64,000 bases of DNA from positions 186,001 through 250,000 of the forward strand of contig JBEWZL010000123.1 in assembly GCA_045837725.1 (NCBI GenBank), written 5' to 3'. Source of the DNA: Vermamoeba vermiformis. Taxonomy: Eukaryota. The position numbers and the translations under genes were made by a program. Below, one piece after another: positions 35,306-49,470 of the stretch; position 1 is the stretch's first letter, and each line of letters opens with the position of its first letter. The notes beneath the pieces were generated by a model. It saw only the letters and a program-made list of their open reading frames with translations, searched no databases and was not told the DNA's origin.

Positions 35306-38300
35306 ATGGACTCCGATAGTGTCAACTCCGAAGTGGAGAATATGGAAGTCGCCAGCATGAGGTACGATTTGCTTTCAATTTTTGGGATTCGATCGCGATT
35401 AGCAAAACGTTTTTTCATTTTTTGTTTTAAAATAAACCAATTGCATAACCATGTATAAAAGATCGTCTCTAATGCGATTTTGACGATCTTGATGCAGTCC
35501 TATTTTTTATTTTAATAATGACAGATCTAATCCACTTATTTTGCAGCGGATCTGGTGAAGAATCTCAAAATGAACAGCCCCAAAAGAAGGGTGTTAAACG
35601 AAAGGCATCAGAGGCCGGCTTAGGTATGACTAAAGCGAAACTAGTTGTTTGGATCGAAGATCACGATCTAACGTTCTGTGCTTGTAGACAAAGGCGAAGC
35701 TCGTAAAAAACAGAAATTAAAATTGAAAGAAAAGAAAATGGCGAAGCCAAACGCTCAGATGGTTTACGGTAAGTTCAACTTCGCTATCTGGATCAGATCA
35801 CTTCGTGCCGATTTCTCATTCTTATTTTTCATTATAGAGGCCAAAAAATTATGGGAACAAGTTAGACAAAAGAAAATTGAAAATGAAAAGAGAAAAGAAC
35901 TCGTTGGAAAGTTGATCGAAGTTGTTCAAGGCAAGATCCACGACGTTGTGTTCAAGAGCGATGCTTCTCGTGTGATTCAATGCATTTTGAAACATGGCAA
36001 TGAAGAGCACAGAAAAATCGTATTCACTGAATTGAAGGGTAAGAATCAACCTTTTTCTAATCCGCAGATCCGTCTGCCTGATCTTAGTCAACAAGATAAC
36101 TGATGCAAATCTAACATATAGATCATATTGTCGCCTTGGCTACTAACAACTACGGCCGCTTCTTGTTGATGAAGATGCTCAAGTACGGCACCAAAGAACA
36201 ACGCAACACTATTATCAGAACCTTCTACGGCTTTATTCGCAAGCAAATTAAGCACAGAGTAAGTTGATGACCTAATATATTTATAGTAATAGCATTATAC
36301 TAATATGATGACATTAGAATGCTTCAGAGGTCATCGAATACATCTTTACTGAGATCGCCACTGCACAACAACGAAATGAAATTATGGAAGAGTTTTACGG
36401 TCTTGAATACTCTACTTTTAAGGTTAGTAACGTATTATAGGTAGTCATGAAGAGCGTTGCGAACGGATGCGATCCGCTACGCGAGAAGGTTTATTGCAAA
36501 TACTAACGTTTATTTATAGACCTACGACAACCGAACACTCGAGACTATTCTCGAACAACACCCTGAGCGCAAAGAAGAGATTTTGAAGTTTATGAACGAG
36601 TACTTCTCGGCTCTGATTGACCAAGAGAACTTGTCCATTCGCTTTGACGTCATTCATGCGCCTCTATTGAAATACTTCCAGTATCCTTTTCAATTTAACT
36701 ATTCTCGTCCAATTAGATCATTTTTAAGATCCGTAATCGGATCCTTACAATAACCCTCAAAATAACTAAGGCGTAGTAATAATACAACGGAACAGTGTGT
36801 AGTCATCATGGTTCTGTTCTTTTTGAGCATGAATCACGATGACTTCAGTCGGTGGTGAAAGACAATTGTTTTTGATGATCGTCTGTTGTTTCTCGTTATT
36901 TTTTGAAGTTGTGGTTTTTGTTTTGCATCATTTGGTATTCATTATCAAGTGGTGTCAAGATAGCAACAACGATCAATTAGACGTTTGAGACTTGAAGATC
37001 GAACAATCAAGTCTTTTGATTGCTTCGCTTCAATATTCACCGACAAGCACCAAACAACAACAAAACTCGTTCCAAGAACAAAGTTTGGGCCTTCATAGTA
37101 CAAAGTGATTGCTTTATTCTTGATTCATCACTTTGCCTCCATAGTCCCTACATTCTTATAAACACATAATAACGATAATTTACAAATATTACCTTTTATG
37201 GAAAGTTATTCCTTAACCTTGTCTCCAGACACGCCAGTCACAAGCAGATTGTCGAAATGGCCGGCAAGTTGAACAAGATTCTGCCCCTCATTCTGCACAC
37301 GCGCAACGGCTCCAAGTTGTGTTTGTACTGCATTAACTACGGTGCTGCCAAGGACCGTAAAGCCATCATCAAGTCATTCAAGGGTCTCATCACTAAGATC
37401 TCCAAGGAAGAGTTCGGTCATATCGGTACGTACTTCAAATACTTTGGTGACATAAGCGCACGTGCTGATGCATTGTTTTAGTTCTTTTGAAGCTTCTTGA
37501 TTGCGTGGACGACACTGTGCTAGTCTCCAAACAAATTTTGAACGAAGTTAAGAAGAACTTGATGGAAATCATTCAAGACAAATACGGCCGTCTCGTGCTT
37601 CTCCAGTTGTTAGTACCTGGCAACAAGAGGTACTTCCCTCAGGTCACTATCGACTTGTTGCAGCCTGTCTTGGTTCCATCTGCCGAAGACCCCACCAAGC
37701 TCGTGAGCACTAGCAAGAAAGACCCTGAGATCCGTCGTCTTGAGTTGTGGAACACTATGCAAAAGGACATAATTGCCATGTTCAAGCGCTTTATGTACAA
37801 AATCATCACGAACTACCAAGCACGCGACGTCTTGTTAGAGACTATTATTGCTACCACTGGTAAGTTTCTAAACTATACTCGTAATAACAAGGCTAATGTA
37901 AAATGTGATAGACGCCAAGATCAAACAAGAGCTCTACGACGCCGTTCTCGAATGGGTTGACTTTGACGCCGAAGCCATGGCCCAACGCATCCAAGAAGAA
38001 GACGAAGAAGAGTCTCAATTGATGCGCGAGTTGTTGCAAGAGAACGAGAAGCTTGAAGCTCAACTCCGTGAAGAGCGCAAGCAACGTGCCGCTGAAATTG
38101 CTCTGAAGAACAAGAAGGCCAAAGAAGCTGAGCGCACTGGTGGCAATGTTGAAGAGGACGAAGAGCCTCAACAACCTCAAAAGGGCAAGGGCAAGGCTGG
38201 TCAACAGCAAGAAGTCCACGATCACAGCGAAGTGCTGGTTGGTGCTCCTACGAAGAAGTTCAAGAAGCTCAAGAACCCTCTTGAGGCCAACAAAGAGAAA

Positions 38301-39208: not shown

Positions 39209-39283
39209 GAACTACAATAAAATAAAAATTCAAAATTATTATAGCCAAACAATAGTTAGTGTAAAAAGATTTTTCTCATAATT

Positions 39284-39326
39284 TTCTTTTTTTTTTTTTT
39301 TTTTTTGCCTTTTTTTTTTTTTTAAA

Positions 39327-39363
<37 letters not shown>
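39284..39363. repeat. Poly(T) tract between PUF6 and the next gene
   Basis: About 80 nt of almost pure T with a few interruptions. Confidence 0.9.
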
Positions 39364-39365
<2 letters not shown>

Positions 39366-39504
39366 CTTCGTGCGTCGGTTGTGTTCAATGAAATTTTAGA
39401 CGGGATCTATTTTAGACAAAATCTTTTTTGTTGAATATTGATACAACAAGTGCAATGAAGTGAGAATTATTTGGGCATACATAACAAATCAAATCAAGAA
39501 TAAG

Positions 39505-42944: not shown

Positions 42945-43757
42945 ATGCAAATGAAATCCCTCTTTGTCGTATTTGTTGCTCTTTGCCTTGCCACTATTGT
43001 TTTGGCGAAGGATCCCGCCAAGCCAAAGCCTCCTACCAAATACACTCTGTCTGCCTTTGCTATTACCCCCAATGGCAACCACTCTGTTCGTTCTTACTAC
43101 GATCAAGCCAATGCTAGGTAGGTGGCAACATATGAACATCGTTCGAGCAATTTTAATAATTTGGATCCGCAGAGCTCGCACTGACATTTTGGACAACAAG
43201 TTTGTTCAAGTCGGAGAGTTCATTGGTCTCTACGAAGAGGTAAGTATACTACGATTATATAATACTATTCTTAGTTAATAAAATGATGAAATAGAAAAAG
43301 GGTCACTTCTACAACAGCACCACTGGTCAATGCGCCGTCTATGGTCTTAGCGCTGGTTGGGTGAACACCTGGGACTTCTTGAACAACGCTACTTTCTACG
43401 GCAACGATACTTTTGCTGCTAACAAGTCTTGCGAACTTTGGGCTTCTAAGCTCGGTAAGCTAATCCACATGCGATCCTGAATTCTCAGAATAATTTTTAA
43501 TGTTTTAACCAACACCCAATGTAGAGAAGAACATGACTTTGGCTGCGTGCTTCTCTCACGAGATCCCCGTCTTCGTTGGTCTTTATAACGGCACTCAAGT
43601 CAACTCGCTCTATTTCATCACTCACTTCGAGGCCGCGGTTAGCAAGGATGTTTTCAGCTTGCCCAGCACGTGCCACAAGACCTCTTTCAAGTTGTCCACT
43701 ATGCCGTTGTTGAACTTGAAGAAATTCAAGGTTCCTGCTCATCCTCTTCTCTTTTAA
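42945..43757 (+). CDS. Secreted ependymin-related-like protein, paralogue A
   Basis: Signal peptide, PAKPKPP, YYD, NSTTGQC, DVFSLPSTC, C-terminus KVPAHPLLF. Confidence 0.6.
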
Positions 43758-44153: not shown

Positions 44154-44934
44154 ATGCAACCAACAAGATCTTACTTCGTCATTCTATCAGCATTATGCTT
44201 GGCTACGATCGCACTGGCTGGAGATCCACCCAAGCCGAATCCACCAACTTCTTATTCCGTTTCATTGTTTACTTTCTCTCGAAATGGTTACGAAGCCACT
44301 CGGACTTACTACAACCAAACTACAAAGAGGTATTTTTTCCGAGATCGCGTTCTTTTGAGTATTAACAGCTCTGCAGCGCTAGAACTGATACGTTCGACCA
44401 AAATTTCAACCCCGTGAGCGAGTTCATTGGCTTTTGGGCACATGTATGTTATTTTTGTCGCCTACTGCGAGCTGATCAAGGACTTTCAGAAACGAGGCTA
44501 CATGTACAATAGCACCACCGGTCAATGCCAGGTCATCGCTTTAACCTCTCCTTGGGCAAACACTTGGGACATCTTAAACAACGCTACGTTCAGTGGTGTT
44601 GAAACGACGTACAAAGGCGAGAAGTGCGTGATGTGGATCACAGCTCTCGGTAAGTTAACCTCGACGGTAGCTTTTATCAATACGATGTTAATCTATTACA
44701 GACAACAATAAGGAACTAAATAGTTGCTTCAATGAGAACACCCCTGTTTATTTTAGCTTGTACGACGGGGGTAATGTGGTCTTTCTCTCTTTCGTCACCA
44801 GTTTCAGTCCGGATGTGGATCCATCAGTGTTTGAGGTGCCGGGCTCTTGCGGCTTCGGTGTGACCCCTCAGTCACCGATGAACTCTGACAACTTGAAGAA
44901 GTACAAGGTCCCTGCTCACCCTCTTCTCTTTTAA
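44154..44934 (+). CDS. Secreted ependymin-related-like protein, paralogue B
   Basis: Same exon layout and motifs (PPKPNPP, NSTTGQC, DPSVFEVPGSC, KVPAHPLLF). Confidence 0.6.
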
Positions 44935-46856: not shown

Positions 46857-49470
46857 TTAATTGCCCTTCCAATAATCACGCATCTTTTGGAAAGTATTGT
46901 GCCAAAATCCACTCGATGTGTCGTGTTGTGCTTCTAATGTTTCTTCTTTTGCAAATTCTTCAATCAATTGCCTCTGTTTTTCGCTCAGTTTCTTCGGGAT
47001 CTGCACTTTGAAGTGAATGAACTATCGATATGAAACTCGTTAGAATATGAATATATTGACCTAGTTGTAGTCTTAATCATACCTGACTGCCAGTCTCGCC
47101 GCCAGCTTTAGATACACCGCGGCCTCGCAGCACGCGTTTTTCAGCGTTTTGAATGCCAGGTGGTACTTTGACATCGACTTCACCGGTCAATGTCGGCACT
47201 CTGACAGTGCCACCAAGAATGGCAACACTCACGGGGAGAGGTACATCAATGTGTATGTCAGTGCCTTCACGGCGGAATAACTCGTGAGGCGTGACATTGA
47301 CGTGAAGGTAGAGGTGGCCGGGTTGACCGCCCTTTGGTCCCGCGTCACCCTGGCCCTTCAACCGAATGTTGTTGCCCTGGTCAATGCCAGCAGGGATCTT
47401 GACGCGCAATGTCTTCGTGTCTTCTTTCACGCCCGCGCCCTTGCACACGCCGCACGGTGTTTCAATCACGACACCTTCGCCCTTGCATTTGCGACACGTG
47501 CGTTGCATGCCCATGAAGCCCATGGACACCACTTCCACGCCTGAACCACCGCAGTTCGTGCAGCCTGAGACACGTGTGCCTGGCTTGGCGCCTGTGCCGT
47601 CACATGTCTTGCAGGTTGACTTGGCTTGGTATCGGATCTGCCGTGAAAGTTAGGTCAGTGCATTGCCATAAAAGGAAATAACAGCGTGATAGATCGTACC
47701 TCTTTCTCGCAGCCAGTAATAGCCTCCATAAACGACAAATTAATGCCGACTTCGATATTATTTCCTTTTTTGGGACCACCAGTCGGTCCGTCTTCAAACA
47801 TGTTGCCGAATCCTCCGCCGAATTCTTCTTGAATCTTGCGGAATATCTCTTCAGGGCTCGTAAATCCTCCGAAGCCTCCGCCGGGGAATCCTCCGAAGCC
47901 ACCAAATCCTCCACCAGGGCCGCCATTTGCACCCGCAGCATTGCCTTCAAATGCCTGCGAGCCATAAGCATCATATGTCTTGCGCTTTTCATCGTCTGAC
48001 AGCACTTCATAAGCCTGACTAATATCTGTGAATTTTTTGTGCGCATCCGCTGACTTGTTGGTGTCAGGGTGGTATTGTTTCGCGAGTGCGTAATATGCTT
48101 TTTTGATTTCATTCTTTGACGCGTTCTTTGACACGCCTAATATCTCGTAGTAATCTTTTTTTGCTCGTGGCACTGCGCAGTGAAAAAAAACGAGTTAGAG
48201 AACCATTGCCATAAAAGGAAATTATCGTACGAGCAACGCGTCATTATAAGAGTAATATTATGGTTTGTATGAATAACTTTCCATAAAAGGTAATATTTGT
48301 AATTATCGTTATTGTGTGTTTATAAGAATGTAGGGACTATGGAGGCAAAGTGATGAATCAAGAATAAAGCAATCACTTTGTACTATGAAGGCCCAAACTT
48401 TGTTCTTGGAACGAGTTTTGTTGTTGTTTGGTGCTTGTCGGTGAATATTGAAGCGAAGCAATCAAAAGACTTGATTGTTCGATCTTCAAGTCTCAAACGT
48501 CTAATTGATCGTTGCCGCTGCTTTCTTGCACCACTTGATAATGAATACCAAATGATGCAAAACAAAACCACAACGTCAAAAAATAACGAGAAACAACAGA
48601 CGATCATCAAAAACAATTGTCTTTCACCACCGACTGAAGTCATCGTGATTCATGCTCAAAAAGAACCGAACCACAATGACTCCACACTGTTCCGTTGTAT
48701 TATCACTACGCGTAGTTATTTTGAGGGTTATTGTAAGGATCCGCTGAAGATCCGATGTTCGCTTCGTATTGTTTCGATATACAAATTAAGTAAATATATA
48801 ATTATTGTTGAGTTTAAAGTCATTATAGTATTATTAATGATAATACTAAAGCTATAATTGTTAAGTTTGAAAATGACGCGTGTCGTAACAATGAGTTCAC
48901 TAAATGTTCGCTTACCTGTAGAGGTGTGAAATTGAGTATATGAAATATTGTCGGCAATATTGTCCTATAATAGAAGTTATTAGTCGACCCTGTTTGGACG
49001 ATCCAGATACAGTTCCAGATCCAAAATAGTTCTGTTAATATTCAGAATTGTTCGATTTGCCACAATGATATTAAATATTAATAGCAGACGTGTCCTATAC
49101 TTTTAGGCGAGGGAGGACCAAGCCAATTCAATAAAACAACACGAAAATATTTTATAATTCTAGATCGCAGTTAAATTACCTGTTGGGCGTTTAATAAAGT
49201 TGTATTTGTATGTTCTGAGGGAAGGCTAACAGAGCGCTTTTTTTCTGTATATTTAAAAAATGGATCAGAACGAATCAGATGCCAGATGAAAATTTGTCGT
49301 TGCATAAATAGAGCCGAATACTTACTACGCGCGTTATTTGTACAGCTGCAGTTGCTGTGAGTATTATTGAACAAGGATAAAGGCTTAGCACTCGAGTGGA
49401 ACTTCCTTGCTTTTGATGCGGCAGATCTGGACAGACGCTTGCAAGCGACTTTAGTTGTGTTGGAAAGCAT
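46857..49470 (-). CDS. DNAJA3: Mitochondrial type I DnaJ (Mdj1/DNAJA3-like)
   Basis: Presequence, J-domain with HPD, G/F region, four CxxCxGxG repeats, C-terminal domain. Confidence 0.9.
48326..48696 (-). ncRNA. Long intronic box H/ACA RNA, copy 2 (in DnaJ intron 48173-48915)
   Basis: H box, 3' hairpin and ACA identical to copy 1; sense to the host gene. Confidence 0.7.

Follow-up and report, generated by a model that had tools for sequence, protein, structure and literature searches.

The yeast box H/ACA small nucleolar RNA (snoRNA) snR191 is encoded in an intron and is longer than average. This RNA is a guide for helix 69 (H69) of the large-subunit (LSU) ribosomal RNA (rRNA), with Psi2258 and Psi2260 as its products (bioRxiv 10.1101/2024.02.02.578723). 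Another yeast H/ACA snoRNA, snR86, reaches about 1 kb owing to a large 5' region (PMC2551606, PMC5824354), and human SNORA23, or ACA23, whose host gene is IPO7, is listed as the guide for positions 28S-3737 and 28S-4331 (PMC6466398). The element considered here is a unit found twice, in inverted orientation, in a stretch of 64,000 nt of Vermamoeba vermiformis DNA (NCBI GenBank assembly GCA_045837725.1, contig JBEWZL010000123.1, positions 186,001 to 250,000 of the forward strand), hereafter called the window, from whose first letter all coordinates are counted. One copy lies in an intron of a Puf6-like gene and the other in an intron of a DnaJ gene, and the unit probably encodes an intron-borne box H/ACA snoRNA in two paralogous copies, the transcript itself being a prediction.

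With snR191 the predicted RNA shares the rRNA hairpin on which it would act, although the loop uridines targeted by the yeast guide lie 4 and 6 nt downstream of the uridine predicted here. The resemblance to snR86 is one of build, as both have a well-conserved 3' hairpin and a very large 5' region in place of an ordinary hairpin, and relatives of about 180 nt occur elsewhere (PMC2551606, PMC5824354). However, snR86 has LSU2314 as its target and, in passages of the same two papers, is not described as intronic; moreover, conservation of its 5' structure has been doubted there, whereas the 5' helices of the present RNA covary. Taking into account that snR86 attains about 1 kb, a length of about 370 nt is not unprecedented. 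Thus, the initial annotation of this locus, made from the sequence alone, overstated the case in calling the RNA unusually long, which holds by animal standards only.

The likeness to SNORA23 extends to the letters of the guide pocket. The consensus pocket strands of that family, UCAUAGUA ... CCUCCA (or, extended, UCAUAGUAC ... GCCUCCA), recur here letter for letter at matching positions, and a lower stem of the GGG/CCC type, the spacing to the ACA box and the encoding within an intron are also shared. On the other hand, members of the family measure about 184 nt and carry an ordinary 5' guide hairpin serving the second target, 28S-4331, whereas here a domain of about 285 nt without a conserved pocket occupies that place; and the human host gene is IPO7 (PMC6466398), as against Puf6-like and DnaJ genes here.

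A duplicated unit in two host introns

The host gene on the + strand encodes PUF and CPL (NUC119) domains of the kind found in Puf6/PUM3-type proteins, and that on the - strand encodes DnaJ, CXXCXGXG and C-terminal domains. The two introns and the two copies of the unit are the following:

36681..37228, + strand: U12-type GT-AG intron of the PUF/CPL (Puf6-like) gene (spliced contig and reads, together with motifs).
48173..48915, - strand: GT-AG intron of the DnaJ gene, phase 1 (reading frame, and conservation in a related locus, L002, described below).
36738..37211, + strand: copy 1 of the duplicated unit, comprising the predicted RNA, about 50 nt of 5' flank and a 3' trailer of 56 nt.
48271..48743, - strand: copy 2 of the duplicated unit (repeat search and pairwise alignment).

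Copy 1 spans 474 bp and copy 2 recurs as its reverse complement, with about 96% identity between them. A repeat search returned two pairs of inverted arms, 36962-37180 / 48301-48519 (219 nt, 99%) and 36771-36923 / 48559-48711 (153 nt, 95%), and pairwise alignment set the limits of homology at CGGATCC (36738 / 48743) and GTTATTC (37211 / 48271), the flanks beyond these words being unrelated. The copies are 11 kb apart and, inverted as they are, each is sense to its own host intron. Their differences, which include copy-specific letters at 36800, 36807-36808 and 36815, are concentrated in the 5' third and around 36950-36966; between 36962 and 37180 there is one alone, at 37167, and the 3' hairpin is the same in both. 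A CA>TG difference replaces a C-G pair and an A.C mismatch with U.G and G-C, as read by hand from the alignment. All these features had been anticipated in the initial annotation, namely, the near-identical recurrence in reverse complement, the sense orientation of each copy to its host (PUF6 on +, DnaJ on -), the identity of the 3' hairpin and a CA to TG change that keeps or improves pairing.

The limits of the Puf6-like intron follow from the junction 36680>37229 (GT..AG, skipping 548 nt), to which a single spliced contig from run X5 and two reads of run X21 attest. Its 5' splice site is GTATCCTTT, at 36681-36689, and its branch site, TTCCTTAAC, occupies 37209-37217, with the 3' splice site 11 nt further on. 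In U12-type introns the consensus is /GTATCCTT for the 5' splice site and TTCCTTAAC for the branch site, which is located 10-15 nt before the 3' splice site. With both motifs present and splicing occurring at those ends, the intron fits the U12 type; thus, the PUF and CPL domains, the junction and the splicing signals uphold the earlier placement of copy 1 in a U12 intron of PUF6. The reading frame, together with conservation in the relative, leads us to infer the ends listed above for the DnaJ intron; it is of the U2 type, in contrast to the U12-type intron that carries copy 1.

The number of copies was judged from the read depth and the loose ends in DNA run X4. The unit is covered about 1.5-2 times as deeply as its flanks, and all four loose ends lead into the flanks of copy 2 or a variant of them, indicating about two copies in the genome. 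Terminal inverted repeats were not found in the unit, nor does pairwise alignment reveal any target-site duplication shared by the flanks of the two copies.

Architecture of the predicted RNA and its conservation

The H/ACA interpretation is supported mainly by comparison with a diverged relative in which this architecture appears to covary, and by the agreement of the pocket strands with the SNORA23 consensus. The elements of the predicted RNA, all of them on the + strand except for the second copy, are listed here.

36789..37155, + strand: predicted mature H/ACA RNA of copy 1, 367 nt, from the base of P1 to 3 nt past the ACA (folds and conserved architecture; ends predicted).
48326..48693, - strand: predicted mature H/ACA RNA of copy 2 (fold), with the H box at 48401-48406 and the ACA at 48329-48331.
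36789..36796, + strand: 5' strand of P1, GGAACAGU, which pairs with 37065-37073.
37065..37073, + strand: 3' strand of P1, ACUCGUUCC, giving the closing stem GGAAC/GUUCC of the 5' domain.
36798..36847, + strand: P2 hairpin (folds and inverted repeat; helix base kept in the relative), with the stem strands AGTCATCATGGTTC at 36801-36814 and GAATCACGATGACT at 36831-36844.
36848..36855, + strand: 5' strand of P3, GUCGGUGG, which pairs with 37037-37044 (UCACCGAC).
36873..36910, + strand: invariant block of 38 nt, the same in both species, within an otherwise diverged 5' domain.
36992..37033, + strand: P6 hairpin (energy minimum, and compensatory changes in the relative).
37075..37080, + strand: H box AGAACA (ANANNA), 1 nt past P1.
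37087..37148, + strand: 3' guide hairpin, with a lower stem GGG/CCC, an upper stem 37101-37109 / 37127-37135 (CAAAGTGAT / ATCACTTTG) and the pocket strands 37090-37100 (CCUUCAUAGUA) and 37136-37145 (CCUCCAUAGU).
37150..37152, + strand: ACA box, 14 nt (37136-37149) below the upper stem.

Independent folds of both species give the layout of an H/ACA RNA: P1 closes the 5' domain, after which come a hinge and a 3' hairpin, the 5' "hairpin" being a multi-branched domain of about 285 nt. P3, of the form GTCGGTG(G) / (T)CACCGAC, appears in the energy minimum of copy 2 and in the centroid of copy 1. The sense strand is more stable than its shuffled versions, with z of -5.1 for copy 1 and -7.1 for copy 2 and none of 100 shuffles folding as well; for the opposite strand z is -3.6. 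Most of what the initial annotation had drawn from the sequence of this region is retained. The H box AGAACA, the pocket hairpin and the ACA 14 nt below the upper stem are where it had placed them, and the large 5' domain is indeed closed by the GGAAC/GUUCC stem, which the relative keeps through compensatory changes. Of the four stems it had described, the closing one, AGTCATCATGGTTC/GAATCACGATGACT and GTCGGTG/CACCGAC stand as they were, and the fourth, AGACTTGA/TCAAGTCT, has been replaced by P6, with which it competes and which both the energy minimum and the comparative data favour.

Metagenome contigs were scanned with a pattern derived from the pocket strands, yielding two loci, L001 and L002, which carry one identical copy of the element and come from a single diverged species. 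L002 is the DnaJ locus of this relative and comprises an exon, the intron bearing the element and the next exon. L001 (2523 nt) contains the first DnaJ exon and the identical element, followed by a trailer with TTCCTTAAC and a Puf6-like exon, all of them in the sense orientation; the join is either an assembly switch inside the shared repeat or an inversion between inverted copies. Under either origin, each of the two host genes has the element beside it in the relative. The distance between the two species can be appreciated in the DnaJ exon, where 138/155 amino acids, 99/155 third positions and 31/58 fourfold sites are identical. In the same comparison, the 3' hairpin through ACAUUCUUAUA is identical in the relative save for one loop base, and positions 36874-36903 are identical in 30/30 columns, as against 6/30 to 26/30 in the other 30-column bins of the 5' domain. 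The ACA box is conserved, and the H box of the relative, AUAACA, satisfies ANANNA at the same position, one base past P1. The linker between the helices and the H box is not conserved.

Folded alone, the sequence of the relative adopts the same architecture (P1, P2, P3, P6, a single-stranded linker, H box, 3' hairpin and ACA), with z of -4.4. In P1, which reads GGAAGAU / AUCUUCC, C-G has become G-C and G-C has become U-A; at the base of P2, A-U has become U.G; in P3, of sequence GUCGAUGG / UCAUCGAC, G-C has become A-U; and in P6, C-G has become G-C and G-C has become A-U. In total, six pairs in four helices are altered on both sides with pairing kept, and the innermost pair of P1 is the only one lost. 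RNAalifold, run on the automatic alignment, reports 9/108 pairs changed on both sides; since that alignment sets the 3' strand of P1 one column off, P1 to P3 were rechecked by script and P6 by hand reading of the folds. Thus, the relative and the independent folds bear out the earlier proposal of a conserved structured RNA with H/ACA layout in both introns.

Putative guide pocket, predicted target site and rival explanations

The pocket strands UCAUAGU and CUCC are complementary to ACUAUGA and GGAG in H69 (GGAG-U-A-ACUAUGA), so that the predicted target is the U of GGAG-U-AACUAUGA, within the H69 motif GGAGUAACUAUGA. As stand-in rRNAs, four eukaryotic rDNA contigs were chosen from 33 loci, and in the 3/3 LSU rRNAs among them this U is the best site formed entirely by Watson-Crick pairs (4+7 bp). 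The target word is also found in a plant 25S fragment (PMC3221849) and in the 28S sequence beside the R2 site (PMC13000458). In human H69 there are five pseudouridines, the first three corresponding to E. coli 1911, 1915 and 1917 (PMC2875026), and the U predicted as the target is the counterpart of E. coli 1911 and of the human pseudouridine that stands first among these five. The site 28S-3737 of SNORA23 was equated with this U by pairing, because the numbering in PMC2875026 runs 10 lower than in the snoRNA table. The modification string given for yeast H69 (PMC13215694) begins two bases after the predicted target and omits this U; thus, the site is modified in some eukaryotes and apparently not in budding yeast. 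The match to H69 at the equivalent of position 1911, already put forward in the initial annotation, therefore holds on the stand-in rRNAs and with the strands of the SNORA23 consensus. Regarding the rRNA genes, it has to be noted that four contigs assigned to bacterial metagenome-assembled genomes (L004, L016, L025 and L028) contain complete eukaryotic ones (LSU_rRNA_eukarya, 1133-2782 bits), which is eukaryotic contamination of the bins concerned.

Several observations count against an H/ACA snoRNA with this target. The rRNAs used are not those of Vermamoeba; with them, 7/60 shuffled pockets find a site as good as H69, and one stand-in small-subunit rRNA offers a 12-bp site with two G.U pairs. 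A descriptor of the H/ACA 3' hairpin (upper stem, pocket, 3-bp lower stem, ACA at 14-16 nt and H box upstream) has 13 matches in the window, as against 8-20 in 10 shuffles. Since the descriptor and the complementarity to rRNA are each common by chance, the structural argument alone is unconvincing. The lower stem of the guide hairpin consists only of GGG/CCC, and the 5' domain has no pocket conserved between the two species 14-16 nt from the H box: by hand reading, the strand 5' of the P1 3' side differs (AAGCACCAAACAACAACAAA vs AAGACCCCCUCUCUCAAAU) and the next helix upstream ends 30 nt from the H box. Because there is one independent relative only, each compensatory pair is to be counted as a single event, and the structural alignment to that relative was made partly by hand. 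An Rfam scan, named in the initial annotation as a check, gave no match at gathering score over the whole window. In a lax scan of the 3' part alone, SNORA23 (RF00319) was one of two weak matches, with 10.0 bits (E 5.6) for a cut-off of 45; in L002 the family scores 11.8 bits. The score is not evidence, and it is the alignment that is informative, because the pocket letters agree, as does their placement with respect to the stems and the ACA.

The RNA data tell neither for nor against a transcript. In the raw RNA runs X21 and X23, with 8 and 9 mapped reads in all, none falls in 36695-37219, at an exon depth of about 1-5, which is far too thin for a verdict; and the RNA-derived contigs of run X5 include the spliced mRNA at depth 31 and no contig of the intron. 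Both raw runs carry the same species label as the best-matching DNA run. All 17 reads are less than 99% alike to the window (9 at 95-99% and 8 at 90-95%), with many differences in the exons (36520-36690 and 37229-37429). Taking into account that none reaches 99%, the reads come from another strain or a close species.

Among the alternatives, an unlikely one is a compact H/ACA snoRNA of about 165 nt, in which P6 would serve as the 5' hairpin and a long hinge would lead from it to the 3' guide hairpin; the 200 nt or so upstream would then be a conserved intron structure that is trimmed away and perhaps aids processing. The full SNORA23 model aligns to L002 638-786 in just this way, from the P6 region to the ACA (11.8 bits), several ANANNA words can be read directly in the A/C-rich linker of the window copy, and in the RNA data, thin as they were, no 5' end was observed. 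However, P1 and P3 enclose the entire 5' domain and show compensatory changes, which are expected only if their 5' strands belong to the functional RNA; no H box other than that adjoining P1 keeps its position, the linker not being conserved between species; and P6 has no internal loop able to serve as a pocket. The chance frequency of both the descriptor and the complementarity, the Rfam scores under threshold, the short lower stem and the invariant 38-nt block, whose function the guide model does not explain, would also suit a conserved structured intronic RNA of some other kind (regulatory, scaffold or splicing-related) with a fortuitous resemblance to H/ACA RNAs. This we consider quite improbable, in view of the fact that conservation extends to the positions of the boxes, to the 14-nt spacing and to the pocket strands alike, that the letters of the pocket are those of a curated family guiding a human 28S site, and that the presence of copies in a U12-type and a U2-type intron speaks against a role bound to one splicing pathway.

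Two near-identical copies with sharp ends in unrelated genes, together with a 10-nt word, AAGCGAACAT, repeated in the DnaJ intron, could also suggest a non-autonomous mobile element inserted in both introns. This explanation is very improbable. By depth there are about two copies, with no other flanks among the loose ends of X4; no terminal inverted repeats and no matching target-site duplications accompany them; the relative has the element by the same two host genes; and the internal conservation tracks the RNA helices. The same observations (about two copies by depth, no such repeats or duplications seen, the same two hosts in the relative) tell against the suggestion in the initial annotation that the RNA moves between host introns. 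The many dispersed copies with target-site duplications by which a plain transposon was to be recognised were not encountered either, as there are about two copies and no shared duplication.

Some narrower candidates were discarded. A SNORA12 match at 36904-37038 (29.3 bits, cut-off 45) has, by hand reading, neither an H box nor an ACA box at the aligned places; moreover, the region is variable in the relative and the match is not among the 14 Rfam matches for L002. When the invariant block was considered as an element antisense to the stand-in rRNAs, the best duplex was of -23.5 kcal/mol and 23/25 shuffled blocks did better. A pairing of the block with the trailer (36890-36905 / 37163-37178, 81%) was chosen in 0/3 of the folds that include trailers. 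Telomerase RNA of the vertebrate type has an H/ACA 3' domain and a conserved C/A-rich template of about 1.5 telomere repeats; here, by hand reading, L002 conserves neither of the C/A-rich stretches (36750-36770 and 37045-37064), and it is in G and U that the invariant block is rich. As for a C/D box RNA, UGAUGA occurs at 36873, but no CUGA was seen in the unit on reading it by hand. A scan of viral contigs with the guide pattern gave 0 matches.

On balance, the H/ACA snoRNA gene pair is very probably real and functional. The RNA would be released by splicing and debranching, after which exonucleases would trim the intron down to the part guarded by the H/ACA proteins (Cbf5, Nop10, Nhp2 and Gar1), leaving a mature RNA from about 36789 to 37155 (367 nt). 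The 3' hairpin would act as a canonical guide, holding the H69 uridine 14 nt from the ACA box for pseudouridylation, and the multi-branched domain of about 285 nt, closed by P1 beside the H box, would stand for the usual 5' hairpin. The site of the first H69 pseudouridine is modified by a protein enzyme in bacteria and through an H/ACA guide in humans. Given that four helices covary and that 38 nt remain invariant where fourfold sites are half changed, the oversized 5' domain, to which the initial annotation had ascribed a possible extra function, may tentatively be regarded as a second functional module, in which case the ribonucleoprotein would be bifunctional and the intronic copies would be kept identical by gene conversion; this is a possible, though rather doubtful, extension. 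By analogy with snR30/U17 or snR10, such a module might dock a protein or chaperone the pre-rRNA. If the snoRNA is confirmed, Vermamoeba would possess a guide for the first pseudouridine of H69, a site missing from the yeast string (PMC13215694), and there would be a clean case, outside budding yeasts, of an H/ACA RNA with an expanded and structurally conserved 5' domain, as well as of two intronic snoRNA paralogs evolving in concert in a U12-type and a U2-type intron. The standard H/ACA mechanism would be left unaltered, and long H/ACA RNAs are already known.

History of the two copies and neighbouring sequences

The presence of the element in the same two hosts in the relative indicates that the duplication is old. 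The copies are about 96% alike within the genome, when about half of the 5' domain has changed between species, as gene conversion between nearby inverted paralogs would produce. Together with the count of about two copies and the lack of terminal repeats, this points to an old duplication homogenised by gene conversion, and not to transposition. The DnaJ intron contains, in addition, the following feature:

48194..48228, - strand: second, more diverged 3' trailer (ACGATAATTTCCTTTTATGG...), resembling the trailer of the DnaJ copy in L002 (direct reading).

The trailer word GATAATTTCCTTTT(T)ATGG is common to the DnaJ trailers by direct reading, the automatic alignment not having lined it up. 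This second trailer suggests a remnant of an older resident copy, which would have been recently overwritten by Puf6-derived sequence.

On the - strand, the 10-nt word AAGCGAACAT is found at the 5' end of the DnaJ intron (48904-48913) and just upstream of copy 2 (48755-48764). The AT-rich stretch of about 140 nt between the two words is missing from the DnaJ intron of the relative, and the distance from the splice site to P1 is 222 nt in the window vs 71 nt in the relative. The repeated word and the AT-rich stretch may be an insertion or duplication mark left by the overwriting event. In the trailers of both hosts and both species, the eight bases after the ACA (UUCUUAUA, 37153-37160) and a later word, GAUAAUUU, are shared; these words may be processing signals, though trailers should be trimmed off.

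In the intron upstream of that bearing copy 1 (36457-36591), DNA run X4 contains two variants of the contig that are equally deep (367 and 361), which suggests two haplotypes in the sample, from a heterozygous diploid or from two nuclei. In the Puf6-like gene, the C-terminal exon, rich in lysine and alanine, is directly followed by long low-complexity runs of T and A (39256-39379). Between the two copies of the unit, a direct repeat of 45 nt (43713-43757 / 44890-44934, 91%) marks the ends of two adjoining sets of open reading frames, at about 42.9-43.8 kb and 44.1-44.9 kb. Both sets start with similar signal-peptide-like sequences and, judging from these features, look like a tandem pair of genes for small secreted proteins.

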